Shown here one piece after another: positions 1 to 57,518 of a stretch of 57,518 nt of DNA (the first letter of the stretch is position 1; each line of letters starts with the position of its first letter). The notes under the pieces are model-generated. The model was given only the letters and a program-made list of their open reading frames with translations. It made no database searches and was not told where the DNA came from. The position numbers and the translations under genes were made by a program. The stretch comes from a virus. Taxonomy: Duplodnaviria; Heunggongvirae; Uroviricota; Caudoviricetes. Location of the stretch: the IMG/VR virus record IMGVR_UViG_2861048470_000006; one strand, written 5' to 3'.

Positions 1-1284
1 TTACAGACTTCTGGAAGGTTGCACAGCTCTTACAACACGCGGTTGATCTTCCGCAGCGTCTTCCAGCGCACTTAAATCACGGTCTTTCACTTCTGGCATT
101 TTCAGCGCAGAGATTAAACCAATCACTGAATATGCCATGATCATAATGGCGATCGGATACCAGGATTCCGTCATGGTGCAGAAAATACCCGCCAGGATAG
201 GACCAAAACCGGAAGCGATAAGACCACCAATTTCTTTAGAAATGGCCATCCGGGTAAAGCGGTTTTTACAGCCGAACATTTCTGCCATGGTAATGTTTTC
301 CAGAGCAAATAATCCCAGCACCGCACAGTTATGAATCACAATCAGTGCAACCATAATGGTGCTCGGGGCATAGCTTTTATCTACAATGATAGAAAGCATT
401 GGCCATGCCAGCACAATCGCGGAGGTATTCATAATAATATACGGGATCCGGCGACCAATTTTATCGGATAACCAACCAAGGAACGGAATGGTCATAAAGC
501 CGAGAATCGAACTAATCATCAATGCATCTGTTGGAATTGCTTTGTTAAACAATAACGTCTGCACTAAATAGCCTGCAAGGAAAGTCTGAATTAACCCGGA
601 GTTACCCGCCTGACCAAAACGCAGCCCTGTTGCCAGCCAGAAGGATTTGCTCTGGAACATGCTACCAGCAGGTGCAGGTTTTGCTGTGGGTTGGTTGCTG
701 TCATTAACCTTCTCAAAGACCGGGCTTTCTTTCAGATTCATACGTAACCAGATAGCAAAGACCATCACGACAACGCTCGCCAGGAACGGTATACGCCATC
801 CCCACGCCAGCAGTTCCTCTTTACTGAGAATGAAGAACATAAAGGCCCAGATTGCCGTTGCGCTCAAGGTTCCGCAGTTAGTTCCCATAGCTACAAATGA
901 GGAGATAATTCCGCGCTTACCTTTTGGTGCATATTCCGCCAGCATCGTACCGGCACCGGAAATTTCCGCACCTGCACCCAACCCCTGAATAATACGCAGC
1001 GTCACCAGCAAGATGGGGGCAAAAACACCAATCTGTGCATAGGTCGGTAACACACCAATTAAGGTGGTACAGATCCCCATCATGGTGATGGTAATAAAGA
1101 GCACTTTTTTACGCCCTATTCTGTCGCCCATTTTGCCGAAAATAAATGCTCCGACAATACGCGCCACATAACCTGCACCGTAGGTTCCCATTGCCAAAAT
1201 TAACGCCATTGCCGTTGATGATTCAGGAAAAAATATTTCATGAAACACTAACGCTGCGCCGAGCGAATATAACTGGAAATCCAT
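1..1284 (-). CDS. ydfJ: MFS transporter of the metabolite:H+ symporter (MHS) family, YdfJ-like; reading frame starts inside the first TM helix, consistent with N-terminal truncation at the prophage junction
   Basis: 427-aa ORF in track; MHS-type loop motif GDRIGRKK; N-terminus MDFQLYSLGAAL aligns with the WFDFY segment that normally follows a ~25-aa N-tail in KgtP/ProP/ShiA; symbol rests on recollection that K-12 ydfJ abuts Qin. Confidence 0.65.
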   Translation of the reverse strand: MDFQLYSLGAALVFHEIFFPESSTAMALILAMGTYGAGYVARIVGAFIFGKMGDRIGRKKVLFITITMMGICTTLIGVLPTYAQIGVFAPILLVTLRIIQGLGAGAEISGAGTMLAEYAPKGKRGIISSFVAMGTNCGTLSATAIWAFMFFILSKEELLAWGWRIPFLASVVVMVFAIWLRMNLKESPVFEKVNDSNQPTAKPAPAGSMFQSKSFWLATGLRFGQAGNSGLIQTFLAGYLVQTLLFNKAIPTDALMISSILGFMTIPFLGWLSDKIGRRIPYIIMNTSAIVLAWPMLSIIVDKSYAPSTIMVALIVIHNCAVLGLFALENITMAEMFGCKNRFTRMAISKEIGGLIASGFGPILAGIFCTMTESWYPIAIMIMAYSVIGLISALKMPEVKDRDLSALEDAAEDQPRVVRAVQPSRSL

Positions 1285-1503
1285 AATTCATAGATATTTT
1301 TTACCATCCTATGGATTTTTGGGCGTTTTCTAAGTTTTTTCAGATGGTTGTATTTTTTCTAAAAACTCCTGATCTCGATTTTGCTGTTTGTCTGAGACCT
1401 TTTTATGTCCCATATATGCCCCAAGGTGCCCCATGTAAATCCAATTCAACTCAAAGCATCCCTGTTCAATATTTTTACAAGGGGCTTGCATATCAGTGTT
1501 TTT

Positions 1504-2070
1504 TTATTGCGTAACGTCAAACGCTCGGATTGAGCGTAAATCATCAAGATTATTCAGCTCTTCCTTCATCTCCCGCTGACGACGATAAATCTCGTCATTG
1601 CGATCGGCCTGTGCCCGTGCCATTACTGCCGCAAGTTCTTCCAGTTCCTGCATCGTCAGGAGGATTGGCGTATTCTCTCCATCTCCCCAAACAATTGTTT
1701 CTCTGCCAGCTCCTGATTTCGCCGCCATTACCACTGGTAAGAGGCGGGACAGCGAAACCGGACCAGCATTCCATTTGTGACCTTTCCATTCCAGCATGAA
1801 CGACATGGACTCCTGTTCCTGACGCCATACTTCGATCTCACACACTTTAGCCTCTTTTTCTGCGGCAATAAGTTCAGGCGTAACGGTAAACCGGGCTATT
1901 CCGCCCCACTTCCCGCTTTGCAGTTCCTGCCAGACCTGTTTACCCATTTCCGCAACATCATTCTCAACAGCGGTATAAGGTAGATGTACCTCCTGCCCCT
2001 CCAAAAGCACTTCACAATATACAGCACCATCCTCCAGAAACATGGCATTTCTTATATTTTTTATCTGCAT
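1504..2070 (-). CDS. tfa: tail fibre assembly protein (Tfa)
   Basis: 188-aa ORF directly downstream of stf; sequence typical of lambdoid Tfa chaperones. Confidence 0.85.
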   Translation of the reverse strand: MQIKNIRNAMFLEDGAVYCEVLLEGQEVHLPYTAVENDVAEMGKQVWQELQSGKWGGIARFTVTPELIAAEKEAKVCEIEVWRQEQESMSFMLEWKGHKWNAGPVSLSRLLPVVMAAKSGAGRETIVWGDGENTPILLTMQELEELAAVMARAQADRNDEIYRRQREMKEELNNLDDLRSIRAFDVTQ

Positions 2071-2076: not shown

Positions 2077-4041
2077 TCACCCGACCCGCACAAATAATCC
2101 TATATACGCTTCCTTTCCGTTGGTGGTATAAAGACCATCTCCCCCCAGAGACTGATACACTCCGGGAAATGCCGATGTATTCGTTCTGCCAATGACAAAC
2201 GTTGCCTCCCCTTTCATTGTGCCTGCTCCTGTCACGCCTCCCACTACTATTTCCACCGGCGCAAGTGCTTTTCCCGGGCATGGTTGTCCACGACTCAGGC
2301 GCATTAAAACTCCACCTTCCGCTACTCCCAAAAAAGCTGCCATAACCACACTGCCGATATCCGGTTTCGGCGAACTGATACTTCTTAAAAATTCATCCTT
2401 TGATAATTTGCTCTGAGCCTCATCCATTACCACTTTGACCGCTTTTGGGGTTGCCGCCAGTGACTCGGAAGTGCTGTTTGTCGCACTACTGAGTTGTACT
2501 ATCCCTTTCTGTGCTGTCGTTGCATTCTGTGCGGTGTATTTCCCGTTAGCCAGGTCATACGCGGCCTTAACTGCTTTTGGCGTTGCCGCCAGTGACTCGG
2601 AAGTACTGTTTGTCGCACTGCTGAGTTGTACTATCCCCTTTTTCGTCGTGCTCGCATCCTCAAGCGCCACGGCGTATGCAATATCCTCTGCCCGTTTTGC
2701 TGCTGTCTCGGCGCGCGTTGCTGCGGATTCTGCCGTACTCTTGCTCTGTGCTGCCGCCGTCGCACTACCAGCTGCCTCGGTCGCTTTCGTGGATGCCGTC
2801 GTGGCACTTCCCTTCGCTGCTGACGCCTGTTTAGTCGCCTCATCTTTTGAAGCAGACGCAGATGATGCCGATGACGCCGCCGAACTGGCGGACGATGCGG
2901 CAGCCGTTTTTGAGGATTCTGCGCTGGTTTCCGACGCTTTCGCGTTCGTTTCGGATGTCTTCGCTGCGGAAGCAGACCTCGCTGCTGCGCTGGCCTGTTC
3001 AGCGGCTTCGCCAGCCTTCGTTGTGGCTGTTGAAGCAGACGATGCGGCACTTTCTGCCGATTTTCCGGCGGCGGTGGCACTGGCTGAGGCCTGCCCGGCA
3101 CTTGTTGACGCGGCACTGGCAGACGACGCAGCCGCTGTTTTTGAGCCTGCCGCAGCTGAGGCGCTCTGTCCCGCTGCCGTCTCAGAAGACTTAGCGTTCG
3201 TCTCGGACGTTTTTGCCGCCTTCGCGGAATTTCCTGCCGCCGTTGCCGAGGAAGCGGCACTACTGGCGCTCGAGGATGCGTTCGTTTCTGATGATTTCGC
3301 TGCCTCTTTTGAGGCCGCCGCATCCCGGGCTGAGGTGGCAGCTTCTGAGGCTTTCGTAGTCGCGGTGGATGCAGAAGTGGCTGCTGATTGTTGTGACGCT
3401 GCGGCATTCGTTTCTGACGTTTTCGCCGCACCGGCACTGGTGGCCGCCGCGCTTTTTGAGGACTCTGCAGCGGCAGCACTTTTTGATGCCTCAGAGGCTT
3501 TTGCTGATGCCGTTCCCGCGCTGGAAAAAGCCTCCTGAGCCGACGTCGCGGCCTGTCCGGCTGACGTGCTGGCGGCACGAGCTGAGCCTGCAGCATCAGT
3601 CGCATGGGTTGCCGCCTCACGGGCTGATGTGCTGGCATCGCTGGCTGACTTCTTCGCGGCTGCCGTGTTCTGTGCCACCGCGGACGCGTTACGCGCCACC
3701 TCTTCCACCATCAGTTCAAAACGGCGCAGTGCCTCAGGACGGGCATCATCCTCCGTCATGGCACCGAGAAAATCATTCAGCGTACCGGGTCGGGAATCTT
3801 CATACACGGTGATGGTCCCGGCATGTGACGGCGGGAATCCCTCCACCAACAGAATAACGCTGTACTGCCCGTACTCAACGTCCATGCTGTAACGCCCGGC
3901 TTCATCCGGATTTTCTGAGGCCAGCGTGTTCACCACCACCGTGGTGCTGTTACGTTTTGCTTTCAGCTGGATTGTGCAGTTCTGTACCGGTTTTCCTGTG
4001 CCGTCTTTCAGTACACCTGAAATCTTTACTGCCATATTCAC
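2077..4041 (-). CDS. stf: side tail fibre protein (Stf); lambda-like N-terminus (MAVKISGVLKDG...), long Ala/Ser/Thr-rich low-complexity shaft; true start probably the ATG 2 codons in (4035)
   Basis: 654-aa ORF; N-terminal match to lambda Stf as recalled; position between lom and tfa. Confidence 0.85.
   Translation of the reverse strand: MNMAVKISGVLKDGTGKPVQNCTIQLKAKRNSTTVVVNTLASENPDEAGRYSMDVEYGQYSVILLVEGFPPSHAGTITVYEDSRPGTLNDFLGAMTEDDARPEALRRFELMVEEVARNASAVAQNTAAAKKSASDASTSAREAATHATDAAGSARAASTSAGQAATSAQEAFSSAGTASAKASEASKSAAAAESSKSAAATSAGAAKTSETNAAASQQSAATSASTATTKASEAATSARDAAASKEAAKSSETNASSSASSAASSATAAGNSAKAAKTSETNAKSSETAAGQSASAAAGSKTAAASSASAASTSAGQASASATAAGKSAESAASSASTATTKAGEAAEQASAAARSASAAKTSETNAKASETSAESSKTAAASSASSAASSASSASASKDEATKQASAAKGSATTASTKATEAAGSATAAAQSKSTAESAATRAETAAKRAEDIAYAVALEDASTTKKGIVQLSSATNSTSESLAATPKAVKAAYDLANGKYTAQNATTAQKGIVQLSSATNSTSESLAATPKAVKVVMDEAQSKLSKDEFLRSISSPKPDIGSVVMAAFLGVAEGGVLMRLSRGQPCPGKALAPVEIVVGGVTGAGTMKGEATFVIGRTNTSAFPGVYQSLGGDGLYTTNGKEAYIGLFVRVG
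2441..2640 (-). repeat. two ~70-bp near-identical direct repeats inside stf, encoding the duplicated peptide KGIVQLSSATNSTSESLAATPKAVK
   Basis: gcttttgg(g/c)gttgccgccagtgactcggaagt(g/a)ctgtttgtcgcact(a/g)ctgagttgtactatccc occurs twice about 120 bp apart; coordinates approximate. Confidence 0.6.
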
Positions 4042-14701: not shown

Positions 14702-14769
14702 AGCGTCCTCACATTTGTAACCGGCTCATTTAAACCGTCTGGTCTGTTTCCTCCGGCTCTACAAAAATA

Positions 14770-15447
14770 ATGTCCATCATTTTTAATGGACACTATCGTA
14801 TGAAACACCGGACCTGGATCACTGAAGCTTTACGTCTTCACTTTGAAGAACATTTACCCCGGGTTGTGGCCGGGCGTCGCCTGGGTGTACCAAAATCAAC
14901 AGTTTGTAGTATGTTCGTGCGCTTTCGGAGAGCTGGCCTTTCGTGGCCTTTGCCCGCAGGCATGTCGGAGCAGGAACTTGATGCCTGCCTTTACGGACAA
15001 TTTTCCACGGTACCAGTCGTACGTCCTGAAAGCACCGTTATATCCGAAGCCCCCGTGGTAAAAAAACGTCCCCGGCGGCCCAACTTCCCTTATGAGTTTA
15101 AAATCGCCTTAGTGGAGCAGTCACTGCAGCCCGGAGCCTGTGTGGCGCAGATCGCCCGGGAAAACGGAATCAACGATAACCTGCTCTTCAACTGGCGCCA
15201 TCAATACCGGAAAGGTGGCCTGCTGCCTTCCGGAAAAAATATGCCGGCACTGCTTCCCGTGACGTTAACGCCGGAGCCGGATAATAAAATCCCGGCCCCC
15301 GCACAGGAACCAGAGCAGATAAATACACCGCCCGACAGTCTGTGTTGTGAGCTGGTTCTGCCGGCCGGAACTCTCAGGCTTAAAGGTAAACTGACGCCGG
15401 CGTTATTACAGACACTTATCCGCGAAATAAAAGGGAGCAGCCACTGA
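14770..15447 (+). CDS. IS66-family accessory protein OrfA with extra N-terminal HTH-like extension
   Basis: 225-aa ORF; C-terminal half (RPRRPNFPYEFK...NDNLLFNWRHQYRKG) aligns with OrfA of the second IS66-family copy at 43197. Confidence 0.75.
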   Translation: MSIIFNGHYRMKHRTWITEALRLHFEEHLPRVVAGRRLGVPKSTVCSMFVRFRRAGLSWPLPAGMSEQELDACLYGQFSTVPVVRPESTVISEAPVVKKRPRRPNFPYEFKIALVEQSLQPGACVAQIARENGINDNLLFNWRHQYRKGGLLPSGKNMPALLPVTLTPEPDNKIPAPAQEPEQINTPPDSLCCELVLPAGTLRLKGKLTPALLQTLIREIKGSSH

Positions 15448-15794
15448 TGATATCTCTCCCTGCAGGTTCGCGTATCTGGCTGGTTGCAGGTATCACCGAT
15501 ATGCGAAATGGCTTTAACGGCCTGGCATCAAAAGTTCAGAACGTCCTGAAGGATGACCCGTTCTCCGGACACCTGTTCATCTTCCGCGGACGCCGGGGTG
15601 ACCAGATAAAAGTGTTGTGGGCTGACAGTGACGGACTGTGCCTCTTCACCAAACGCCTGGAGCGGGGCCGCTTCGTCTGGCCAGTCACCCGTGACGGCAA
15701 GGTGCACCTTACTCCGGCTCAGTTATCCATGCTTCTTGAAGGTATCAACTGGAAGCACCCGAAACGAACGGAACGCGCTGGAATCCGCATATAA
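15447..15794 (+). CDS. IS66-family OrfB (TnpB-like)
   Basis: 115-aa ORF, ~75% identical by eye to the OrfB at 43595; conserved [16 protein letters not shown]. Confidence 0.85.
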   Translation: MISLPAGSRIWLVAGITDMRNGFNGLASKVQNVLKDDPFSGHLFIFRGRRGDQIKVLWADSDGLCLFTKRLERGRFVWPVTRDGKVHLTPAQLSMLLEGINWKHPKRTERAGIRI

Positions 15795-15813
15795 CCCGTT
15801 GTAAAGTGAGGAT

Positions 15814-17385
15814 ATGGACACCTCACTTGCTCATGAGAACGCCCGCCTGCGGGCACTGTTGCAGACGCAACAGGACACCATCCGCCAGATGGCTGAATAC
15901 AACCGCCTGCTCTCACAGCGGGTGGCGGCTTATGCTTCCGAAATCAACCGGCTGAAGGCGCTGGTTGCGAAACTGCAACGTATGCAGTTCGGTAAAAGCT
16001 CAGAAAAACTTCGTGCAAAAACCGAACGGCAGATACAGGAAGCACAGGAGCGAATCAGCGCACTTCAGGAAGAAATGGCGGAAACGCTGGGTGAGCAATA
16101 TGACCCGGTACTGCCATCCGCCCTGCGCCAGTCTTCAGCCCGTAAACCGTTACCGGCCTCACTTCCCCGTGAAACCCGGGTTATCCGGCCGGAAGAGGAA
16201 TGCTGTCCTGCCTGTGGTGGTGAACTCAGTTCTCTGGGATGTGATGTGTCAGAGCAACTGGAGCTTATCAGCAGCGCCTTTAAGGTTATCGAAACACAAC
16301 GTCCGAAACAGGCCTGTTGCCGGTGCGACCATATCGTGCAGGCACCAGTACCTTCAAAACCCATTGCACGCAGTTATGCCGGAGCGGGGCTTCTGGCCCA
16401 TGTTGTCACCGGGAAATATGCAGACCATCTGCCGTTATACCGCCAGTCAGAAATATACCGTCGTCAGGGAGTGGAGCTGAGCCGTGCCACACTGGGGCGC
16501 TGGACAGGTGCTGTTGCTGAACTGCTGGAGCCGCTGTATGACGTCCTGCGCCAGTATGTGCTGATGCCCGGTAAAGTCCATGCTGATGATATCCCCGTCC
16601 CGGTCCAGGAGCCGGGCAGCGGTAAAACCCGGACAGCCCGGCTGTGGGTCTACGTCCGTGATGACCGTAACGCCGGTTCACAGATGCCCCCGGCGGTCTG
16701 GTTCGCGTACAGTCCGGACCGGAAAGGTATCCATCCACAAAATCACCTGGCCGGTTACAGCGGTGTGCTTCAGGCCGATGCTTACGGTGGTTACCGGGCG
16801 TTATACGAATCCGGCAGAATAACGGAAGCCGCGTGTATGGCTCATGCCCGGAGAAAAATCCACGATGTGCATGCAAGAGCGCCCACCTACATCACCACGG
16901 AAGCCCTGCAGCGTATCGGTGAACTGTATGCCATCGAGGCAGAGGTCCGGGGCTGTTCAGCAGAACAGCGTCTGGCGGCAAGAAAAGCCAGAGCCGCGCC
17001 ACTGATGCAGTCACTGTATGACTGGATACAGCAACAGATGAAAACACTGTCGCGTCACTCAGATACGGCAAAAGCGTTCGCATACCTGCTGAAACAGTGG
17101 GATGCACTGAACGTGTACTGCAGTAATGGCTGGGTGGAAATCGACAACAACATCGCAGAGAACGCCTTACGGGGAGTGGCCGTAGGCCGGAAAAACTGGA
17201 TGTTCGCGGGTTCCGACAGCGGTGGTGAACATGCGGCGGTGTTGTACTCGCTGATCGGCACATGCCGTCTGAACAATGTGGAGCCAGAAAAGTGGCTGCG
17301 TTACGTCATTGAACATATCCAGGACTGGCCGGCAAACCGGGTACGCGATCTGTTGCCCTGGAAAGTTGATCTGAGCTCTCAGTAA
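15814..17385 (+). CDS. IS66-family transposase OrfC
   Basis: 523-aa ORF with N-terminal leucine zipper, CxxC...CxxC zinc-finger and DDE core, parallel to ORF at 43992. Confidence 0.9.
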
Positions 17386-17415
17386 ATATCAATACGGTTC
17401 TGACGAGTCGCTTAC

Positions 17416-18386: not shown

Positions 18387-18397
18387 ACATCCCCCTT

Positions 18398-18751: not shown

Positions 18752-18762
18752 AGCGCCTCCCG

Positions 18763-19149: not shown

Positions 19150-19190
19150 GAACTCCTCCACAGAGAGAAAATGGCCCCGAAGGGCCATGA

Positions 19191-20216: not shown

Positions 20217-20271
20217 AAAAAAATCCCGTAAAAAAAGCCGCACAGGCGGCCTTTAGTGATGAAGGGTAAGG

Positions 20272-33499: not shown

Positions 33500-33862
33500 T
33501 TATTTACATGCAATAACGCTCGTAATACCCTCTACAAAACCAATTGCAGTTTGTAATTCCTTTCTAATCGTGCCATCTGAACACCTTCTCTTTTTGGCAA
33601 TAGTGCGTAATGAGATACCAATAACAAAGTGGGCTATGATGAGCTCATATTCCTCTGGTTTATACCTTCTCAACCGAGCCACACAACTGTCTATCATAAT
33701 GCCTTCGTCATCATCACACTGAATCCGTGACTTTTTACCATGAGGTAAAAGCCCCTTGAAGCCCGCTGCTATCGGTTGCCAATCGACACCACTATTTTCT
33801 GCTGCAGCCCATGCCCCCCAGCGGTCTAAAACCTCATACATATCACGCCCCATTACTATCAC
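33500..33862 (-). CDS. late antiterminator Q (phage-82/QuuD type)
   Basis: motifs LDRWGAWAA...IAAGFKGL...CSDG match QuuD-type Q as recalled; probable start at internal ATG (33853). Confidence 0.7.
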   Translation of the reverse strand: MIVMGRDMYEVLDRWGAWAAAENSGVDWQPIAAGFKGLLPHGKKSRIQCDDDEGIMIDSCVARLRRYKPEEYELIIAHFVIGISLRTIAKKRRCSDGTIRKELQTAIGFVEGITSVIACK

Positions 33863-34214
33863 CTCTAATTTCGCAAATCTTCACGCCCAGCCGACCACCA
33901 GGAACGAGCTTACCGCGCACAATATTGATTTCATCAAACTGCTCGTCGTCTATGAGAAGCCCCGCATGCGTCAGTGCATCCAGCGGTGCTTTCAGGATAT
34001 TGTCCAGGTCCCGACGGCGCTTATCCGGCGGCTCTGCAGTAATTTTTATTGCCAGCCTTCCGGACAGGTTTAATTTCAGCCGCTGCTGGCGGACAATAAG
34101 TGCCACATCCCGGCGATAACGCTCACCGGCTTTTGATACAAAATATGTGCTGCCACGACGACGCCAGTAGGTGTTCACCGTCGGCGGGTAAGGCAAAACA
34201 AACTCTATACGCAT
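33843..34214 (-). CDS. rusA: Holliday junction resolvase RusA
   Basis: 123-aa ORF with RusA motifs (PPTVNTYW, RRRDLDN). Confidence 0.85.
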   Translation of the reverse strand: MRIEFVLPYPPTVNTYWRRRGSTYFVSKAGERYRRDVALIVRQQRLKLNLSGRLAIKITAEPPDKRRRDLDNILKAPLDALTHAGLLIDDEQFDEINIVRGKLVPGGRLGVKICEIRGDSNGA

Positions 34215-34226
34215 CAGTAACCTCTT

Positions 34227-35273
34227 TTACCCGAGCACGCCGGTTGCAAAGGCGCGATCAAGAAAACGAAAAATTAAATCAATCTGGGAACCATGCTTTT
34301 CTTCGAACGCCAGCGGATCCGCATGAAGCTCGTTGTGATGCTCCCGACACAGCGGTAGCGTGAAAATATCGTGGGATTTTGTCCCTATTCCGCCCTGACC
34401 ATGACCAATCAGGTGATGGGGATCGTCGGCTGGCTTATCACAACACGCACACGGCTGTGTCTTTACCCAGCGCGTATATTTCTCATTTACCCAACGGCGA
34501 CGTTTAGGTCGCTTCATGAAAGATTCCGGAGACTCCGGATCAACAGCAATGCTGACCACCGTCTTTTCCTGTGGTGGATTTTGCTGGTGGGCGTGAGGCA
34601 GCGGCGCAAGATTTTTTGTGCGCTGCTTCAGTATGCTGGTGGCGGTCTGCTCTCCCGGTACGATGTCGCTTTCGCGGTACACCGAGCGAATTTTTTCCGC
34701 ACGTAACCCCAGAGAACGACGTAATACTACCTCCGGTAGTGCGTCCGCCACCTGATTGCAGACAGCCCACCAGGATAATTCAGCCAGCGATAATTCCCGC
34801 TCCTGTGTGCCATTCATTGCATGGCGCATGACATCAATCATCCATGCTGACAGGTTTTGGTGAGCAAGTTGCTCAAGTGATTCGGAGGACTGGTCACGCA
34901 ACTGGTTGTCACAGTGCCAGCACAACACCATCGCGCCAGCACCGTAACGATGTATGACGGTTTCGCTGTGATGGTAATCACCATGAGGCCACTGGCAGGA
35001 TTTAATATGGCGCAACAGCCAGTCAGACAATGCACCAGCACCACCAGCAGCACGAATCACCCGTGCGTTACTGAAAAACGGCAGCAATGTTTTGTCTTCC
35101 ACTAGCGGCTGGCGAACGGCAGGAACGACCCCGGACGGCAGATTACGCATGCTTTTCGGTTCCGGCTCCACCAGTACCCGGGTATTGTGGAATACCGGCA
35201 TGGATTCCCGGCCCGGCTTAACGATCACCAGCCCGAGTTCCGGTACCAGAACAGGTCGAAGTAATACCCGCAC
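34227..35273 (-). CDS. DUF968-family phage protein (YdfU-like) with C-terminal Cys/His HNH-like motif
   Basis: 348-aa ORF; CACCDKPADDPHHL...CREHHNELH; position after rusA as in Qin. Confidence 0.6.
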   Translation of the reverse strand: MRVLLRPVLVPELGLVIVKPGRESMPVFHNTRVLVEPEPKSMRNLPSGVVPAVRQPLVEDKTLLPFFSNARVIRAAGGAGALSDWLLRHIKSCQWPHGDYHHSETVIHRYGAGAMVLCWHCDNQLRDQSSESLEQLAHQNLSAWMIDVMRHAMNGTQERELSLAELSWWAVCNQVADALPEVVLRRSLGLRAEKIRSVYRESDIVPGEQTATSILKQRTKNLAPLPHAHQQNPPQEKTVVSIAVDPESPESFMKRPKRRRWVNEKYTRWVKTQPCACCDKPADDPHHLIGHGQGGIGTKSHDIFTLPLCREHHNELHADPLAFEEKHGSQIDLIFRFLDRAFATGVLG

Positions 35274-35274
35274 G

Positions 35275-35682
35275 TTACCTCCAGATGCGTTGCTGGAATG
35301 TGCGGGACGGACGCGGTGGGCGTTCGGAGTAAGGAAGCCTGACGGAGATTATCCAGTGACGATAATCGAGGCTGAGGGCTTTCTTAATCTCGTATCCGTG
35401 TCTGCGGTAGCACTGAATTAGCCACTCGGCCTGTTCTTCAGTGCATGGGGGATGCTGGAACCAGTCAGATTTGAAAGTGCGGGAACGCCGCCCGTGCCTG
35501 CTGGCAAAGACGGCAGAATCATCAGAATTGTGTAATTTGGTATCGTGCGCCATCGGTTGTCTCTGCTGGCGCAGCAGGTGCCAGTTGTTCAGGCTGGCGT
35601 GCGAATTGTAAACCAGAATGCTAGGAAAAAACAAAACCCGCCGAAGCGGGTTAAGTGCGGGTGCGTTGAGGATGCCTGACAC
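35275..35682 (-). CDS. hypothetical phage protein (position of rem in Qin)
   Basis: track ORF 135 aa; likely shorter from internal ATG; no motif recognised. Confidence 0.3.
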   Translation of the reverse strand: MSGILNAPALNPLRRVLFFPSILVYNSHASLNNWHLLRQQRQPMAHDTKLHNSDDSAVFASRHGRRSRTFKSDWFQHPPCTEEQAEWLIQCYRRHGYEIKKALSLDYRHWIISVRLPYSERPPRPSRTFQQRIWR

Positions 35683-35719
35683 ATCAGAGGTGGCGAGGGA
35701 TTCTCCCCCGCCTGGTCTC

Positions 35720-35875
35720 TTACTCCTCAGGTTCGTAAGCTGTGAAGACAGCGACCTCCGTCTGGCCGGTTCGGATTCGTACCTCGCAGAGGTCTTTCCT
35801 CGTTACCAGTGCCGTCACTATGACGGTTAAACAGATGACGATCAGGGCGATTAACATCGCCTTTTGCTGCTTCAT
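35720..35875 (-). CDS. hokD: Hok-family type I toxin
   Basis: 51-aa product MKQQKAMLIALIVICLTVIVTALVTRKDLCEVRIRTGQTEVAVFTAYEPEE matches Hok/RelF as recalled; track ORF extends upstream in frame. Confidence 0.9.
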   Translation of the reverse strand: MKQQKAMLIALIVICLTVIVTALVTRKDLCEVRIRTGQTEVAVFTAYEPEE

Positions 35876-36086
35876 AGCCTGCTTCTCCTTGCCTTTCGGC
35901 ACGTAAGAGGCTAACCTAGATTTGCCGTTCATAGATTGAGCCTCAGATTAATGTTAAGCGTCTTGCAGGACGCGTAATGTTAACTGGGGCTTTTCTCTAT
36001 CTGCCTTTGGTGTTCATGCCTGAGACAGATAGCCTCAAGCACCCGCAGCCATTCTACTTAACTCCCGTTACCTCGCCAATATAAAA

Positions 36087-50156: not shown

Positions 50157-50582
50157 TCAATGTACTGCCACAGCATTTCCTGCCGGGCCACCACGGTTCA
50201 TCTGATTGAAACCGGCGATTGCCACTGCGACAAAATCATCAGCGTCTCTCACCAGTCGCTCCCGCGTCTCCACCAGCTCCCGAAAATAAGCTGAACTGTG
50301 GCTGCGCATTCTGGCCACCAGCAAAGGTGGCATTGCCTTTTCGATCGCTGGTAACAACGCCTGAATTTTTTCAACTGCATCAGGGGTGTCTTTCTCTACC
50401 CAGCGGAAAATTTTCTGGGTATTGCGAGCCAGGGCTTCCGGATGGCTGTCGTCATACAGTTCCGGGAACGTCATTCCCAGCTCGAAATACGCTTTGGTAA
50501 TTTTCGCAGCCGGTACTTTTTCGCCGTCCGGATGCGCCCAGGCATTCATCGCCATGCGGATGTGTTCATGCTTGATTTTCAT
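50157..50582 (-). CDS. hypothetical early-region protein (CII/YdaT-position)
   Basis: 141-aa ORF directly downstream of cro-like gene with 4-nt overlap; no motif recognised. Confidence 0.35.
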   Translation of the reverse strand: MKIKHEHIRMAMNAWAHPDGEKVPAAKITKAYFELGMTFPELYDDSHPEALARNTQKIFRWVEKDTPDAVEKIQALLPAIEKAMPPLLVARMRSHSSAYFRELVETRERLVRDADDFVAVAIAGFNQMNRGGPAGNAVAVH

Positions 50583-50794
50583 GAATCATTCTTTCCTTCG
50601 TTCGAGGTGCTATCCTGCTTCTTGTAAAGTTCTGGGTTGTATTTCAATTCACCGTTAGTAATTTCATCCAGTTCCATTGCGCGAAGTTTGGGAATAACTG
50701 CTTTCCACCGCACAACAGCCACATGTGAAATTCCAAGAGCCTCAGCTACTAGTCGCTTTTTTTTGAAATAGCGCAGAACATCATCTTTGAACAT
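50579..50794 (-). CDS. Cro-like HTH regulator
   Basis: 71-aa ORF divergent from cI-like gene; HTH segment LVAEALGISHVAVVRWK. Confidence 0.6.
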   Translation of the reverse strand: MFKDDVLRYFKKKRLVAEALGISHVAVVRWKAVIPKLRAMELDEITNGELKYNPELYKKQDSTSNEGKNDS

Positions 50795-50823
50795 AAAACT
50801 CTCCTGTTATTTCGAGCAGGATG

Positions 50824-50885
50824 GTAACAATAGTTACATAGCAATGTCAACCATAGCAACATCACTTGGTAGTAACATTGGTTAC
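50824..50885. promoter_or_regulatory. two operator-like 14-bp sites GTAAC-N4-GTTAC in the cro/cI divergent intergenic region
   Basis: GTAACaataGTTAC (50824-50837) and GTAACattgGTTAC (50872-50885), the latter abutting the cI ATG. Confidence 0.45.
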
Positions 50886-51560
50886 ATGAAAAACACTATC
50901 AGCGAACGTATTCGGAATCGTCGAAAAGACGTTGGATTAACCCAACAGCAGGTTGCGAAAGCAATCGGCATATCTCGTGTATCCGTAACAAAATGGGAAA
51001 ATGGCTCTTCAAAACCTGACGGTGAGAATTTGCATCTACTGTCAAAATTGCTTTCCAAATCTCCTGAATGGATTCTTTATGGAAAGGACGGTCACGATAA
51101 AACCGATGATCTGCGTCTGAATCAGTATCCTTACATTAGTGACAACATCGCCCGGTTGCCCGTTTTAACGTGGGAACAGGCTGGTTATTGGGATATGAGT
51201 TGTCCAGTAACCGAGATTCCTGGCATTAAGAATTGGGTTGATGTCATGACAAAAACCGCTGAAAACTCTTTTTTATTGCATGTTGAGGGAGATGCGATGA
51301 CAAACTCTAACGGCCTCCCAACCATCCCCGATGGATCTACCGTGCTGATCACACCATGCTCAAGTAACATTAGAGAACTGGTGGGAAAAATAATCTTAAT
51401 CCAATTGGAAGGAACGCCAAACGTAACACTAAAAAAAGTTGCGATTGACGGACCAAACATCTATCTGTTGTCACTGAATCCGCTTTACAAACCCATCGAA
51501 CTGAATGGTGGTTACACCATTAAAGGTAAAGTTTCACAAATACATCAATACTTAGACTGA
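50886..51560 (+). CDS. CI-like repressor (N-terminal XRE HTH, C-terminal S24 LexA-like peptidase)
   Basis: start at MKNTISERIRN... (ATG 50886); HTH LTQQQVAKAIGISRVSVTKWE; C-terminal S24-like region. Confidence 0.8.
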   Translation: MKNTISERIRNRRKDVGLTQQQVAKAIGISRVSVTKWENGSSKPDGENLHLLSKLLSKSPEWILYGKDGHDKTDDLRLNQYPYISDNIARLPVLTWEQAGYWDMSCPVTEIPGIKNWVDVMTKTAENSFLLHVEGDAMTNSNGLPTIPDGSTVLITPCSSNIRELVGKIILIQLEGTPNVTLKKVAIDGPNIYLLSLNPLYKPIELNGGYTIKGKVSQIHQYLD

Positions 51561-51832: not shown

Positions 51833-51988
51833 ATGGATACTATCGATCTTGGCAACAGCGAATCTCTGGTATGTGGCGTGTTCCCCAACCAGGACGGTAC
51901 GTTCACCGCGATGACGTATACCAAAAGCAAAACGTTTAAAACCGAAAATGGTGCCCGTCGCTGGCTGGAAAGAAACTCAGGTGAGTGA
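51833..51988 (+). CDS. small protein YdfA-like
   Basis: 51-aa ORF from internal ATG with GAGG RBS; first gene of the dicB operon by position. Confidence 0.5.
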   Translation: MDTIDLGNSESLVCGVFPNQDGTFTAMTYTKSKTFKTENGARRWLERNSGE

Positions 51989-51989
51989 T

Positions 51990-52118
51990 ATGGATTTCGA
52001 CACAATCATGGAAAAGGCTTACGAAGAATACTTCGAAGGTCTTGCCGAAGGCGAAGAAGTTCTCAGCTTCAGTGAGTTTAAACAGGCGCTTTCCAGTTCG
52101 GCAAAATCTAACGGCTGA
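51990..52118 (+). CDS. small acidic protein YdfB-like (42 aa)
   Basis: hand-translated MDFDTIMEKAYEEYFEGLAEGEEVLSFSEFKQALSSSAKSNG; starts 2 nt after previous stop. Confidence 0.4.
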   Translation: MDFDTIMEKAYEEYFEGLAEGEEVLSFSEFKQALSSSAKSNG

Positions 52119-52147
52119 TAAGCGAAACAGCACCGCGAGGAATCAGT

Positions 52148-52366
52148 ATGCAGAAACGAGAACCCGTCATCATCGCGCCAGACTATACCGATGATGAACT
52201 TTATGAGTGGATGCACCAGAAAATTAATGCAGCGCAGGATCTGAAATGGGCCAATGAAGCCAGGGCTAAGCAGGCTGAAAATCTGTCCGCTCTGGAGCAG
52301 GATATCACCAATCTGGAAAAAGCAGCGGCATTAAGCATTGCCAGAATGATTACATACCCGCGTTAA
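52148..52366 (+). CDS. small protein YdfC-like
   Basis: 72-aa track ORF. Confidence 0.5.
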   Translation: MQKREPVIIAPDYTDDELYEWMHQKINAAQDLKWANEARAKQAENLSALEQDITNLEKAAALSIARMITYPR

Positions 52367-52706
52367 TAGCTAACCAACGAAGCTAAGGTTGGTAATTAAG
52401 GAGTTCTCCACGGGTGAGGTGGAGTGCGTGCGCCGGACACGGGTGAGCATCCGGCACTGACAGTTTACTGAAAGGATATTTCCCTGAAAAGTCAGACCAT
52501 AACGCGAAAGCGCACGGCGAGGTAGCTGGTTCATAGATAGCCTGTTGTTAAATTTTCGTCGACCGTGCGCTTCCGGTTGTGGCAATCCGCGAAATGGCGC
52601 GGCGGTAAGTATGGCGGGGCTATTCCTTCCCCGTTGAGGACACCGGGTTGTCAGGTTGACCATACGCTTAAGTGACAACCCCGCTGCAACGCCCTCTGTT
52701 ATCAAT

Positions 52707-52759
52707 TTTCTGGTGACGTTTGGCGGTATCAGTTTTACTCCGTGACTGCTCTGCCGCCC
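52707..52759 (+). ncRNA. dicF: DicF small RNA (ftsZ-targeting sRNA)
   Basis: 53-nt TTTCTGGTGACGTTTGGCGGTATCAGTTTTACTCCGTGACTGCTCTGCCGCCC matches DicF as recalled, followed by TTTTT; immediately upstream of dicB. Confidence 0.8.
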
Positions 52760-52933
52760 TTTTTAAAGTGAATTTTGTGATGTGGTGAATGCGGCTGAGC
52801 GCACGCGGAACAGTTAAAACCAAAAACAGTGTTATGGGTGGATTCTCTGTATCCGGCGTTAATTGTTAACTGGTTAACGTCACCTGGAGGCACCAGGCAC
52901 CGCATCACAAAATTCATTGTTGAGGACGCGATA

Positions 52934-53122
52934 ATGGAAACGTTATTACCAAACGTTAATACGTCTGAAGGTTGTTTTGAAATTGGTGTCACTATCAGTA
53001 ACCCTGTATTTACTGAAGATGCCATTAACAAGAGAAAACACGAACGGGAGTTATTAAATAAAATATGCATTGTTTCAATGCTGGCCCGTTTACGCCTGAT
53101 GCAAAAAGGACGCTGGCAATGA
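52934..53122 (+). CDS. dicB: cell division inhibitor DicB
   Basis: 62-aa product METLLPNVNTSEGCFEIGVTISNPVFTEDAINKRK... near-identical to DicB as recalled. Confidence 0.9.
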   Translation: METLLPNVNTSEGCFEIGVTISNPVFTEDAINKRKHERELLNKICIVSMLARLRLMQKGRWQ

Positions 53123-53322
53123 ATACTGCTGTTGCCCTCACTCTGACTGTTTTTCTTAATACTGGCGAACCTGTTGATGTGGTTACTGGTATATATGGTT
53201 CAATGAAAGAATGTATGGCTGCCGCAGCAGAACAGAAAATTCCTGGTAACTGTTATCCGGTCGAGAAAGTTATTCGCATGGATAATAACGAAATCCCGGC
53301 AGGATTAAAAACAGCGCCGTAA
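53119..53322 (+). CDS. small membrane protein YdfD-like
   Basis: 67-aa ORF from internal ATG overlapping dicB stop (ATGA). Confidence 0.55.
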   Translation: MNTAVALTLTVFLNTGEPVDVVTGIYGSMKECMAAAAEQKIPGNCYPVEKVIRMDNNEIPAGLKTAP

Positions 53323-53401
53323 TTAATATCCAGTTTCATTTTTACATGCCAGCAATGGCAGGGATTTGTTCACCCTTAAATCTGTAATGAGGTAAAACAA
53401 A

Positions 53402-55882
53402 ATGAGTAAAGTCTTTATTTGCGCCGCCATTCCGGACGAACAGGCAATAAAGGAAGAAGGTGCAGTTGCTGTAGCCACTGCCATTGAAGCCGGTGACGAA
53501 CGCCGCGCCCGTGCCAAATTTACCTGGCAATTCCTGGAGCAATATCCGGCTGCTCAGGACTGCGCTTATAAATTTCTTGTCTGCGAGGATAAACCCGGCA
53601 TGCCCCGCCCTGCTATCGACTCCTGGGATACCGAATATATGCAGGAAAACCGCTGGAATGAGGAAGGCGCTTCCTTTGTCCCGGTCGAAGCAGAATCCGA
53701 TCCGATGAACGTCAATTTTGACAAGCTGTCCCTTGAAGTACAGAACGCGGTCCTGGTTAAGTTCGGTACATGTGAAAACATCACCGTTGATATGGTGATT
53801 AGTGCACAGGAATTGTTGCAGGAGGACATGGCAACATTCGACGGGCATATCGTTGAGGCATTGATGAAAATGCCTGAAGTTAACGTCATGTATTCAGAAC
53901 TAAAGCTGTTCGCCATCGGGTGGGTTAAACATAAATGTAAGCCGGGCGCAAAATGGCCTGAGATCCAGACAGAATTACGCACCTGGAAAAAACGTCGCGA
54001 AGCCGAACGCAAAGAAACCGGGAAATACACGTCTGTTGTTGATCTCGCCTACGCCAGAGTCAACCGGCAGAACACTGAAAACTCAACAGGAAAAATCCAC
54101 CCTGTCACTGCCGCCATTCGTCGCGAATACAAGCAGACATGGAAAACACTGGATGATGAACTGGCCTACGCTCTCTGGCCTGGTGATGTGGATGCCGGAA
54201 ACATTGACGGCAGCATCCATCGCTGGGCAAAAAATGAAGTTATCGACAACGACCGCGAAGACTGGAAGCGTATCTCGGCATCAATGCGCAAACAGCCTGA
54301 TGCCCTTCGCTACGACCGCCAGACTATTTTTGGCCTTGTCCGTGAACGTCCGATCGACATTCACAAAGACCCTGTGGCACTGAACAAATACATTACTGAA
54401 TACCTGACTACAAAGGGCGTGTTTGAAGATGAAGGAACAAATCAGAGCGCAACTGATACTCTCTCGTCGCCAGTACCAGAAACTGATGCAGTGGAAACGG
54501 CAATTCCGGACAACGAAAAAACCGAATGCAAAGTGGAAGTCGAACCATCTGTAGAGCGTGAGGGGCCGTTCTACTTCCTCTTCACCGACAAGGATGGCGA
54601 AAAATACGGTCGCGCAAACAAACTTTCTGGTCTGGATAAGGCACTGGCTGCCGGGGCTACTGAAATCACGAAAGAAGAATATTTCGCCCGCAAAAACGGT
54701 ACATACTCAGGTTCACAACAAAATACTGGTGCATCTGACACGACCGCACAACCAGGGCCGGTAAAAGTTACCGCTGACGAAGTAAACAAAATTATGCAGG
54801 CAGCCAATATCAGCCAGCCTGACGCCGATAAGTTGCTTGCTGCCTCTCGCGGAGAATTTGTTGCAGGGATTAGCGACCCGAATGATCCGAAATGGGTTAA
54901 GGGGATCCAGACCCGCGATTCTGTAAACCAGAACCAGCATGAATCGGAACGGAACTACCAAAAAGCGGAACAAAACAGCCCAAATGCGTTACAAAACGAG
55001 CCAGAAACGAAACAGCCTGAACCAGTGGCGCAACAGGAACCGGAAAAGATCTGCACCGCCTGCGGTCAGAGCGGTGGCGGCAACTGCCCTGAATGTGGTG
55101 CGGTGATGGGCGACGCAACATACCAGGAAACATTCGATGACAAGAACCAGGTTGAAGTTCAGGAAGACGATTCGGAGAAAATGGAAGGCGCTGAACATCC
55201 ACACAAGGAGAATGCTGGCAGCGCTCAGGACCACGCCAGCGATAGTGAAACTGGCGAGACGGCAGATTCCTTAATTTCGGTGAACGGTCATCACGTTATC
55301 ACATCCACCAGCAGAGTGTGGTACCACCTGATGATCGACCTTGAAACAATGGGAACCAACACCAATGCGCCCATCGTGGTTATTGGTGCGGTTTTCTTCG
55401 ACCCACAAACAGGGGAAATCGGGCCAGTATTTTATATCGTTATCAGTCTGACTGACGCAATGAATACAGGGGCTGTTCCTGACGGTGGAACCATCGAATG
55501 GTGGCTGAAGCAGTCCAGTGAAGCCAGAGCTGCCATTTTAACAGACCAGGTAAAACTGAAGGATGCCCTTTCGCAGTTTCGGGAGTTCATCAACGAATAC
55601 TCAGATGAAAAATTCGTTCAGGTATGGGGTAATGGTGCGACTTTCGATAACGCAATTTTGCGCACCTCATACGAACGTCTGGACATCCCCTGCCCGTGGC
55701 GCTACCACAACGATCGCGATGTACGCACAATCGTTGAGCTGGGAAAAACAATCGACTTTGATGCCAGAACCGTTATTCCATTCGAAGGCGTGCGCCACAA
55801 TGCACTGGATGACGCCCGTCACCAGGCAAAATACGTTACAGCTACGATACAAAAACTGATCCCGAGTCAGGCTGATTTTTAA
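53402..55882 (+). CDS. large phage exonuclease-domain protein (C-terminal DEDDh 3'-5' exonuclease fold; internal CxxC...CxxC zinc ribbon)
   Basis: 826-aa ORF; Exo motifs MIDLETMG, WGNGATFD, HNALDDARHQ; CTACGQSGGGNCPECG. Confidence 0.7.
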   Translation: MSKVFICAAIPDEQAIKEEGAVAVATAIEAGDERRARAKFTWQFLEQYPAAQDCAYKFLVCEDKPGMPRPAIDSWDTEYMQENRWNEEGASFVPVEAESDPMNVNFDKLSLEVQNAVLVKFGTCENITVDMVISAQELLQEDMATFDGHIVEALMKMPEVNVMYSELKLFAIGWVKHKCKPGAKWPEIQTELRTWKKRREAERKETGKYTSVVDLAYARVNRQNTENSTGKIHPVTAAIRREYKQTWKTLDDELAYALWPGDVDAGNIDGSIHRWAKNEVIDNDREDWKRISASMRKQPDALRYDRQTIFGLVRERPIDIHKDPVALNKYITEYLTTKGVFEDEGTNQSATDTLSSPVPETDAVETAIPDNEKTECKVEVEPSVEREGPFYFLFTDKDGEKYGRANKLSGLDKALAAGATEITKEEYFARKNGTYSGSQQNTGASDTTAQPGPVKVTADEVNKIMQAANISQPDADKLLAASRGEFVAGISDPNDPKWVKGIQTRDSVNQNQHESERNYQKAEQNSPNALQNEPETKQPEPVAQQEPEKICTACGQSGGGNCPECGAVMGDATYQETFDDKNQVEVQEDDSEKMEGAEHPHKENAGSAQDHASDSETGETADSLISVNGHHVITSTSRVWYHLMIDLETMGTNTNAPIVVIGAVFFDPQTGEIGPVFYIVISLTDAMNTGAVPDGGTIEWWLKQSSEARAAILTDQVKLKDALSQFREFINEYSDEKFVQVWGNGATFDNAILRTSYERLDIPCPWRYHNDRDVRTIVELGKTIDFDARTVIPFEGVRHNALDDARHQAKYVTATIQKLIPSQADF

Positions 55883-55951: not shown

Positions 55952-56203
55952 ATGAGCGAAGTAATCATGATTGTCTCTCCCGGTAAATGGGTATCCGAAG
56001 AACAGCTAATTGCGCTGAAAGGAATAAAAAAGGGAACACTAAAAAAAGCCAGGGAAAAATCGTTTATGGAAGGAAGGGAATATAAGCATGTAGCCCATGA
56101 CGGTATGCCATGGGATAACAGCCCATGCTTTTACAACCTGGAAGAAATTGATCGCTGGATTGAACGTCAGGCATCAGCAAGACCAAGACGTCATCTTACT
56201 TGA
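55952..56203 (+). CDS. excisionase-like protein
   Basis: 83-aa ORF immediately upstream of integrase; assignment by position and size. Confidence 0.5.
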   Translation: MSEVIMIVSPGKWVSEEQLIALKGIKKGTLKKAREKSFMEGREYKHVAHDGMPWDNSPCFYNLEEIDRWIERQASARPRRHLT

Positions 56204-56222: not shown

Positions 56223-57518
56223 ATGAGAGAAGCTAAAATGAAATATCCGACAGGCGTGGAAAACCATGGAGGGAAATTACGTATCTGGTTTGTTTATAAA
56301 GGTGTAAGAGTCAGGGAAAATCTGGGGGTTCCTGACACGACAAAAAACAGGCGCATTGCAGGTGAGCTGCGCGCCTCTGTTTGTTATGCAATAAAAACCG
56401 GCGTTTTCGACTATGCAAAACAGTTTCCCTCCTCACACAATCTGGAAAAATTTGGTGAGGCCCGGCAAGATTTAACCATAAAGGAACTGGCTGAAAAATT
56501 TCTGGCACTGAAAGAAACGGAAGTCGCAAAAACGTCACTCAACACGTACCGTGCCGTCATCAAAAATATTCTGAGCATAATCGGTGAAAAAAATCTTGCC
56601 TCGTCGATTAATAAAGAAAAATTGCTGGCGGTACGTAAAGAGTTACTTACTGGATACCAGATCCCCAAAAGTAATTATATTGTTACGCAACCGGGGAGAT
56701 CGGCTGTCACCGTAAATAATTACATGACAAATCTTTACGCCGTGTTCCAGTTTGGTGTTGATAACGGTTACCTGGCAGATAATCCGTTTAAGGGGATCTC
56801 GCCATTAAAGGAATCAAGAACCATTCCTGATCCTCTTTCACGGGAGGAATTTATCCGTCTTATCGACGCCTGCAGAAATCAGCAGGCCAAAAATTTATGG
56901 TGTGTTTCTGTTTATACAGGCATTCGCCCTGGTGAACTGTGTGCGCTTGGGTGGGAGGACATAGATCTGAAAAATGGAACAATGATGATCAGGAGAAATT
57001 TAGCAAAAGATCGTTTTACGGTACCGAAAACACAGGCTGGTACCAATCGGGTAATTCACCTTATCAAGCCTGCAATCGACGCTCTCAGGAGTCAGATGAC
57101 ACTAACGAGGCTGAGCAAAGAACATATTATTGACGTTCACCTCAGAGAGTTCGGCAGAACAGAAAAACAAAAATGCACCTTTGTTTTTCAACCTGAAGTG
57201 TCAGCGAGAGTAAAAAATTATGGTGACCATTTTACCGTTGACTCAATAAGGCAGATGTGGGACGCAGCGATAAAGCGCGCTGGCCTCCGCCACCGCAAAT
57301 CATATCAGTCGAGACATACTTATGCCTGCTGGTCGCTGACAGCCGGTGCCAACCCGGCATTCATAGCAAACCAGATGGGACATGCAGATGCGCAAATGGT
57401 GTTTCAGGTATACGGGAAATGGATGTCTGAAAACAATAATGCACAGGTAGCCCTGCTAAATACACAGCTAAGCGAGTTTGCCCCAACCATGCCCCAAAAC
57501 GAGGTGGCGCAAAATTAA
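56223..57518 (+). CDS. int: tyrosine integrase
   Basis: 431-aa ORF with C-terminal catalytic residues (…RHTYAC…HADAQMVFQVYGKW); stop codon is the last triplet of the window. Confidence 0.9.
   Translation: MREAKMKYPTGVENHGGKLRIWFVYKGVRVRENLGVPDTTKNRRIAGELRASVCYAIKTGVFDYAKQFPSSHNLEKFGEARQDLTIKELAEKFLALKETEVAKTSLNTYRAVIKNILSIIGEKNLASSINKEKLLAVRKELLTGYQIPKSNYIVTQPGRSAVTVNNYMTNLYAVFQFGVDNGYLADNPFKGISPLKESRTIPDPLSREEFIRLIDACRNQQAKNLWCVSVYTGIRPGELCALGWEDIDLKNGTMMIRRNLAKDRFTVPKTQAGTNRVIHLIKPAIDALRSQMTLTRLSKEHIIDVHLREFGRTEKQKCTFVFQPEVSARVKNYGDHFTVDSIRQMWDAAIKRAGLRHRKSYQSRHTYACWSLTAGANPAFIANQMGHADAQMVFQVYGKWMSENNNAQVALLNTQLSEFAPTMPQNEVAQN

Follow-up and report, generated by a model that had tools for sequence, protein, structure and literature searches.

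The ydfJ gene has repeatedly been described as a prophage integration site in Escherichia coli. It is the site of the cryptic prophage Qin in strains K-12, B, W and Crooks (PMC3032704) and of a 46.8-kb lambda-like prophage in strain SE11 (PMC2608844), and prophages of 11-97 kb have been reported at the site (189 strains; PMC6379469). PMC8112680 describes PPydfJ prophages and prophage clusters in E. coli that produce Shiga toxin (STEC), with the phage attachment site (attP) derived experimentally. Here, we analyzed a stretch of 57,518 nucleotides (IMG/VR record IMGVR_UViG_2861048470_000006), hereafter the window, in which a prophage adjoins a truncated ydfJ. We conclude, with a probability of roughly 0.95, that a lambdoid temperate phage integrated site-specifically into the bacterial attachment site (attB) in ydfJ, as did K-12 Qin and PPydfJ.

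The phage-host junction

Positions 1-1600 of the window were compared by megablast with 5426 complete E. coli genomes, 5366 of which contain this region. Identity between the window and intact ydfJ extends to position 1286, and the sequences are unrelated from 1287 onward. The uninterrupted attB reads ...AACTGGAAATCCATAAATTCAAGCGCAG..., the junction in the window reads ...AACTGGAAATCCATAATTCATAGATATT..., and the integrase-side junction in strain 120899 reads ...GGCTCTTGAAATCCATAAATTCAAGCGCAG...; what all three share is the 11-bp core GAAATCCATAA, which was found once in the window when both strands were searched. An earlier note, made from the sequence alone, had placed the junction in the 5′ end of a ydfJ-like gene, and the junction indeed lies at the 5′ end of the truncated open reading frame (ORF). 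The same note expected the core within 1285-1503; the alignment to an uninterrupted ydfJ that it proposed locates the core at 1276-1286 instead, overlapping the 5′ end of the ORF, with phage-only DNA beginning at 1287. The features of the junction and of the integration module are as follows.

1..1284, minus strand: ydfJ′, the C-terminal 427 codons of the gene for YdfJ, a major facilitator superfamily transporter of the MHS family, without codons 1-28 and the upstream rspA-rspB context; TIGR00883, 453 bits
1276-1286, no strand: attachment core GAAATCCATAA, 11 bp, with the same sequence in attB, at both prophage junctions and in the attP of free phages; includes the CAT at 1282-1284
1287..1433, no strand: phage attP arm on the tail-fibre side, conserved among ydfJ prophages; K-12/Qin-type homology reaches 1424 and O157-type homology 1432
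1417..1433, plus strand: TGCCCCA pair (heptamers at 1417 and 1427), putative arm-type integrase sites
55952..56203, plus strand: excisionase (DUF1233; Pfam)
56223..57518, plus strand: tyrosine integrase of 431 aa (Pfam Arm-DNA-bind_2, 84 bits, and Phage_integrase, 66.9 bits)

The core is embedded in a longer, imperfect similarity. The extended attachment (att) sequence CTGGAAATCCATAA|TTCA occupies 1273-1290 and can be written CT(G/T)GAAATCCATAA(A)TTCA, with one mismatch and a 1-nt indel; the phage form has 18 nt and the host form 19. This agrees with the PPydfJ att of 18 or 19 bp that the legend to S7 Fig of PMC8112680 reports from an attP PCR product.

The window ends on the stop codon of the integrase (57518), and the earlier note was right that the other junction lies beyond this end. 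Seven enterotoxigenic E. coli (ETEC) genomes match both window 1-1600 and window 55000-57518 at 100% identity. In one of these, ETEC strain 120899, 37 nt of phage DNA separate the integrase stop (window 57518) from the second core (positions 6557-6567 of extracted region L005), so that in relatives with 100% identical ends this core lies 38-48 nt past the window end. Beyond it come an 84-nt 5′ end of ydfJ, a 57-nt intergenic region and rspB. The resulting stub on the integrase side reads MTIEKHERSTKDLVKAAVSGWLGTALEFMDFKSHE* and comprises 35 codons, 31 from ydfJ and 4 from the phage. The sequence past the window end is expected to be TTTATTAATTATCAAATAGTTACTACTCATGGCTCTT-GAAATCCATAA-ATTCAAGCGCAGTGCC..., followed by rspB, and the prophage, with one core counted, is about 56.28 kb long in the window's version. 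Two points weigh against this reconstruction. The integrase-side junction was read from relatives with identical ends and may differ in the source genome, and the closest relatives have about 55,069 bp between the positions of the window ends, compared with 57,518 here. The relatives had to be used because the junction between tail gene V and an IS66-family insertion sequence (IS) in the window has no 100% match among the complete E. coli genomes.

Free phages provided an independent view of the boundary. In mEp460_ev081 (LR597641) and PhiR42_1 (PV340562), ...CTCTTGAAATCCATAATTCACAGG... occurs as one unbroken sequence; the sequence 3′ of int reads ...CATGACTCTTGAAATCCATAATTCACAGGTGTTTTTTCCCATCC..., and the core begins 38 nt 3′ of int. 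The arm at 1287..1433 is thus contiguous with the integrase-side arm in both phages, and their attP is collinear with the integrase-side arm, the core and the ydfJ-side arm, as represented by K-12 Qin and by window 1287-1424. Because this attP is unbroken and collinear, the two prophage ends are halves of one attP and the boundary truly falls at 1286/1287. For mEp460, a literature search on the integration site returned prophage-prediction mentions only.

Both arms also contain a repeated heptamer. Besides the TGCCCCA pair at 1417/1427, a second pair lies in the integrase-side arm at 57479-57496 (57479/57490). The pairs share their orientation and a spacing of 10-11 bp, and stand near the outer limits of the two conserved arms; on the tail-fibre side the distance to the core is 131-147 nt, and on the integrase side about 60-78 nt. 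Three of the four heptamers are exact in the attP of mEp460 and PhiR42_1, the fourth being CTCCCCA. TGCCCCA is not enriched across the window (9 found compared with 10 expected), and four of the nine fall in the two arm pairs. The arrangement is suggestive of arm-type integrase sites, for which we regard the pairs as candidates.

A "DinI family" remnant at 1344-1433 was considered as a gene fragment and rejected; only the last ~6 codons (MPQGAP) match the start of the DinI-like gene of O157-type prophages, which begins at the equivalent of ~1416. We treat 1344-1433 as part of the conserved attP arm and not as a gene.

Consequences for ydfJ

The truncation was measured against prophage-free strains. 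In the sequence type 131 (ST131) genome NZ_CP103710 and in UR21/11-869 (NZ_OU342919), intact ydfJ is 1368 nt long, encodes 455 aa and is directly followed by rspB-rspA-ynfA. The minus-strand ORF at 1..1284 encodes 427 aa with the N-terminus MDFQLYSLGAAL...; since the prophage-free alleles encode 455 aa, the window ORF is short by exactly 28 N-terminal codons, namely MTIEKHERSTKDLVKAAVSGWLGTALEF. The earlier estimate of 25-30 missing codons was therefore accurate, and so was the suggestion that the ORF starts in the middle of the first transmembrane segment (TM1): in intact YdfJ, positive hydropathy spans approximately residues 14-46, which places Met29 in mid-TM1. MHS-family profiles (TIGR00883, ShiA and ProP; NCBIfam) begin at residues 5-23 of intact YdfJ, and on the truncated protein the same alignments begin 6-25 profile positions later. 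The Prokaryotic Genome Annotation Pipeline (PGAP) flags the gene in strain 120899, whose genome is identical over window 1-1600, as "incomplete; missing N-terminus". Overall, the window YdfJ is not a full-length transporter, having 427 instead of 455 aa and lacking residues 1-28, the first half of TM1.

The suggestion that the ATG at 1282-1284 (CAT on the plus strand) might be fortuitous did not survive the comparison, as this codon is the native Met29 of ydfJ and lies within the core. A check for full-length homologues starting at Met29 found none; they have 455 aa, with 28 extra codons, and the truncation stands.

It could be argued that the 427-aa ORF from MDFQLYS is the natural ydfJ and that the prophage occupies the intergenic region upstream of it. 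Older and current K-12 annotations do give ydfJ (b1543) as a 427-aa coding sequence, and the SE11 genome paper sets its prophage "between ydfJ and rspB" (PMC2608844). However, the site is uninterrupted in 2012 complete genomes, with a 455-aa ydfJ in frame through Met29; on the long form, the MHS profile alignments begin at residues 5-23, the hydropathy puts Met29 in mid-TM1, and PGAP flags the short form as lacking its N-terminus. The intact alleles already refute this view, to which we give practically no credence. Truncation by the prophage remains our reading, and the 427-aa "YdfJ" of K-12 and of many other annotations is the prophage-truncated allele of an ancestral 455-aa gene.

The phage does not restore the 5′ end of the gene, and ydfJ would therefore be inactivated as a normal 12-TM transporter. 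On the minus strand, the phage DNA supplies a TGA two codons 5′ of Met29 (...CTA TGA ATT ATG GAT...). Read directly from the window sequence, no Shine-Dalgarno-like sequence stands at a normal distance from Met29, and a crude consensus scan of 1200-2200, which is weak negative evidence, found no promoter-like site for ydfJ′. A consensus scan of the 57-nt rspB-ydfJ gap of the intact locus found neither a promoter-like nor a terminator-like site, which is consistent with co-transcription of rspAB and ydfJ. The genes ydfJ-ydfI and rspA-rspB form a co-directional cluster that the insertion would have parted, and both expression and function of ydfJ would be lost. For Qin, the loss of 28 codons and of the promoter at the 5′ end of ydfJ has been reported (PMC6379469). 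Against a complete loss of expression stands a K-12 study that lists ydfJ among the genes with altered expression upon DicC induction, which means that some transcription occurs.

A more active role for the prophage can be conceived, either as a reversible switch ("active lysogeny") acting on a putative rspA-rspB-ydfJ-ydfI operon or through phage read-through that expresses a Met29-initiated ydfJ′ with some transport function. If this were true, excision, scarless at the core and with int and xis intact, would restore the 455-aa YdfJ and its co-transcription with rspAB, and a switch or read-through could help to account for the persistence of the split allele in about 60% of E. coli genomes. 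We consider either version very unlikely.

Distribution of the occupied site

The positions at which megablast matches to window 1-1600 end, examined in matches sampled evenly down the ranking, fall into four classes. Matches ending at 1600 share the same prophage end. Those ending at 1432 are of the O157 type with a DinI-like gene, and those ending at 1424, about half of the sampled rows, are of the K-12/BL21 type. Matches ending at 1290 (~37% of sampled rows) are prophage-free and include the ST131 genome and UR21/11-869. Approximately 58% of the sampled matches carry the same phage arm family beside ydfJ′. Moreover, when the 5426 complete genomes were searched with an 81-nt probe of intact attB, the probe was fully covered in 2012 and split in about 3226.

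Comparison with Qin

In NC_000913.3, the feature "cryptic prophage Qin" runs over 1632277..1652745; its first base is also that of the left core, and it stops immediately short of the right copy. Because the feature runs from core to core, the att site of Qin is that of the window. In MG1655, the core stands at the equivalent ydfJ position (4278 of extracted region L006), with the second copy at 24747 of the same region, so the comparison of boundaries proposed in the earlier note gave the same site, the same core and the same position. K-12 ynfP (36 aa; L006 24729-24839; MTIEK...MDFKSHAC*) is the severed 5′ end of ydfJ, with 31 native and 5 phage-derived codons.

At the DNA level, six collinear blocks, about 6.4 kb in total, are shared between the window and K-12.

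1-1424: ydfJ′ and 138 nt of phage arm, 97% nt identity to K-12
25632-26711: nohA/Nu1 region, 97% nt identity to Qin
34227-35570: ydfU/DUF968, 84% nt identity to Qin
35627-35889: hokD, 98.5% nt identity to Qin
51795-54168: ydfA to ydfE, 92% nt identity to Qin, ending at the IS2E that truncates K-12 ydfE
56359-57518: intQ, 93% nt identity to the K-12 intQ pseudogene

In tblastn searches, 15 of the 38 Qin products matched the window, in the same order; for intQ, the match extends over the entire 386-residue translation of the pseudogene at 83%. Between DicA and DicC and the repressor pair of the window, identity reaches only 39-54%. No tblastn match in the window was obtained for ynfT, ydfK, pinQ, tfaQ, stfQ, ydfO, gnsB and the csp genes, nor for the lysis genes, ydfT (Q), rem, relBE, ydfV, flxA and ydfW.

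The earlier note had seen in this prophage a resemblance to a complete version of Qin. The gene order that it gave is correct, as supported by PGAP annotation of the near-identical prophage, by Pfam and by the Rfam hits to DicF and sok, and the integration and early-left modules, DUF968-hok and nohA are indeed shared; the claim does not hold for the 23 of 38 proteins that remain unmatched. It is also highly improbable that the prophage is an undecayed Qin of the same lineage throughout, from which K-12 Qin arose by deletions only. Such a descent would fit the common att site and core, the int and early-left operon at 93% and 92% nt identity, and the DUF968-hok and nohA segments in the same order. 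The 23 Qin proteins without a tblastn match and the distant DicA/DicC pair speak against it, and deletion alone cannot derive Qin because Qin has modules that this prophage never had, as is typical of lambdoid mosaicism. Collinear homology does not extend over the whole length; the site and the integration module are common, and the whole genome is not. The prophage is best described as a mosaic relative of Qin that shares the integration and early-left modules.

Gene content and state of the prophage

Gene calls were taken from Pfam and from the prophage of strain 120899, 99.98% identical, as annotated by PGAP. The morphogenesis genes are as follows.

1504..2070, minus strand: DUF4376 protein at the position of the tail-fibre assembly gene (Pfam/PGAP)
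2077..4041, minus strand: side tail fibre, in which a prophage tail-fibre N-terminal domain is combined with fibre repeats
14701 down to 4100, minus strand: lambda-type tail genes V, G, T, H, M, L, K, I, J and lom (PGAP)
14718..17415, plus strand: IS66-family (ISCro1-like) element, with the 8-bp duplication TCACATTT at 14710-14717 and 17416-23
26160 down to 17416, minus strand: lambda-type head and packaging genes Nu1, A, W, B, C, D, E, FI, FII, Z and U, all full length

Pfam supports GpA and Phage_cap_E in the head module. Across its entire length (17416-26160, 8.7 kb, 100% covered), this module shows 98% nt identity to PhiR68_2, mEp332, 2H10 and lambda variants, and the tail module is 95-96% identical to isolated lambdoid phages, with 85-86% of the 13.4-kb tail-side query covered. 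A full lambda-like head and tail complement, as the earlier note proposed, is thus supported by PGAP, by Pfam and by 95-98% nt identity to isolated phages. PGAP flags the side tail fibre as C-terminally incomplete in the near-identical (99.99%) 120899 sequence.

The last ~110 codons of the side tail fibre (2077-2410) and the DUF4376 gene have no match in the best-matching isolated phages. Rather than reflecting a truncation, they could be an alternative pair of receptor-binding tip and chaperone.

The regulatory and early regions carry the following features; a YdaT-like protein is also annotated in the prophage.

33500-33862, minus strand: Q antiterminator (PGAP/Pfam)
within 33500..36044, minus strand: RusA (PGAP/Pfam)
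34227-35273, minus strand: DUF968 protein, 85% aa identity to Qin YdfU
35723-35875, minus strand: hok, 100% to HokD
35870-36044, minus strand: sok RNA (Rfam, 110 bits)
36889-38920: ParA-family protein and two hypothetical proteins (cargo)
39203-40495: DUF2254 protein (cargo)
40544-42547: BCCT-family transporter (cargo)
42704-48717: IS cluster with an IS3 copy interrupted by a second IS66-like element, and an IS21/IS100 copy
50579-50794, minus strand: cro-like gene of the immunity region (50579..51560), distantly related to Qin dicC/dicA
50844-51560, plus strand: cI-like repressor with helix-turn-helix and S24 peptidase, distantly related to Qin dicC/dicA
51833..55882, plus strand: early-left operon common to Qin, with ydfA, ydfB, ydfC, DicF, dicB, a ydfD-like gene and exonuclease
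52708-52759, plus strand: DicF small RNA (Rfam, 76.7 bits)
53402-55882, plus strand: exonuclease (PGAP/Pfam)

The YdaT-like protein likewise comes from PGAP/Pfam. The Q-lysis interval contains two tRNA genes (Thr and Gly in 120899) at 30044-30194, which adjoin a DNA methyltransferase at 30363-31409, and a hypothetical ORF of 427 aa at 32010-33293 on the plus strand lies between Q and the methylase. In strain 120899, the prophage carries a YlcI/YnfO-family gene and iss between the lysis cassette and Nu1; the latter gene, for the Iss (increased serum survival, Bor-like) lipoprotein, lies at 935-1228 of extracted region L007, corresponding to about 26900-27200 of the window.

In total, the prophage carries four copies of IS elements, and its cargo genes make up about 6 kb. 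The first IS66 element occupies the gap of 14 nt that separates tail genes U and V. In strain 120899, the same ISCro1-like IS is found in the terminase large-subunit gene, and that site (24335-24342) is intact here. Within the IS cluster, the second IS66-like element (43126-45567) is nested in IS3 with the duplication GGATGAAG, and the IS21/IS100 copy spans 46763-48717. Compared with strain 120899, the whole IS3+IS21 block is in inverted orientation, and a DUF977 gene is interrupted at 48717/48718 by the end of the block; short overlaps at the breakpoints suggest an IS-mediated inversion. The corresponding interval of 120899 is about 2.45 kb shorter than that of the window. Because of this length difference, the other position of the ISCro1 copy and the inverted block, 120899 was rejected as the source of the window. 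The cargo (36889-42547) lies between the hok/DUF968 (Q) region and the replication region.

Judged from its gene content, the prophage has probably lost full function, in view of the IS66 between U and V, the IS3/IS21/IS66 cluster with the cargo in the early-right region, and the flagged fibre. A fully functional prophage, one that is inducible and excisable, yields infectious particles and restores ydfJ on excision, is an unlikely but not fanciful alternative. The genes for int, xis, the cI-like S24 repressor, cro, Q, all head functions and tail V-J are full length; the morphogenesis modules match their equivalents in isolated phages at 95-98% identity, and the terminase large subunit is intact, unlike in strain 120899. 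However, the first IS66 lies inside the late operon, the IS3/IS66/IS21 cluster and the transporter and ParA cargo stand where replication and nin genes normally continue and DUF977 is cut, the tail fibre is flagged as C-terminally incomplete, and no helicase-loader gene is annotated.

Discussion

Overall, the following course of events best explains this locus. A lambdoid phage of about 56.3 kb entered attB in ydfJ codons 27-31 by tyrosine-integrase recombination, with strand exchange inside the 11-bp identity GAAATCCATAA (window 1276-1286). The insertion split ydfJ so that codons 29-455 remain here, cut off from the first half-helix and from the upstream rspA-rspB, and left a 35-codon stub on the integrase side that corresponds to K-12 ynfP.

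Publications already cover the integration site, the loss of 28 codons and the att sequence; the finding is correct but ordinary, because the site is well documented and is occupied in most E. coli genomes. Its value is annotational and lies in the exact boundaries: a core at 1276-1286, phage DNA from 1287, and a second core past the integrase stop.

Among the known occupants of the site, Qin (Kim) shares with this prophage the collinear genes ydfA-ydfB-ydfC-dicF-dicB-ydfD-ydfE, ydfU/DUF968, hokD and nohA, and an attP arm homologous to window 1287-1424. In contrast, Qin is 20.5 kb long, lacks head and tail genes and has an int cut by IS2, whereas the window prophage is about 56.3 kb long, has lambda-type morphogenesis genes and intact int and xis, and differs in IS and cargo content. 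PPydfJ of STEC (O157:H7 and O26:H11 strain 11368) and PP_SE11-3 of the commensal SE11 are likewise lambda-like prophages at ydfJ, and the SE11 prophage end matches the int region of the window at 95.4%. The STEC PPydfJ carry type III secretion system effector loci and a DinI-like gene at the arm and are often arranged in tandem prophage clusters; the window prophage, which belongs to an ETEC lineage, has none of the STEC effectors in the annotation examined.

The integration module is of the lambda type, with arm-binding and tyrosine-recombinase catalytic domains present in the integrase and the excisionase gene adjoining. As in the lambda Int/Xis/attP system, a tyrosine recombinase with an N-terminal arm-binding domain is encoded directly downstream of xis, attP adjoins int, recombination at a short core gives direct repeats at the prophage ends, and the head and tail genes are of the lambda type. 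Compared with lambda, the core and the target differ, the target lying within a coding gene and not between gal and bio; the integrase is a different family member, and its arm-type sites are candidates predicted from the repeats.

Counterparts are also found among free phages. In mEp460_ev081, HannyBb, Tritos and PhiR42_1, which are phage genome records of 45-49 kb without the IS elements and cargo genes of the window, the xis-int segment is 93.5-93.6% identical in nucleotides to that of the window. The integrase of PhiR42_1 is identical to the window's at 416 of 431 residues (97%), and its head module is shared at 97.9%. The attP arm of the free phages is the K-12/Qin variant, approximately 85% identical to window 1287-1424. 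The integration module of the cryptic prophage Qin is thereby linked to isolated phages, mEp460 and PhiR42_1, that still carry it.

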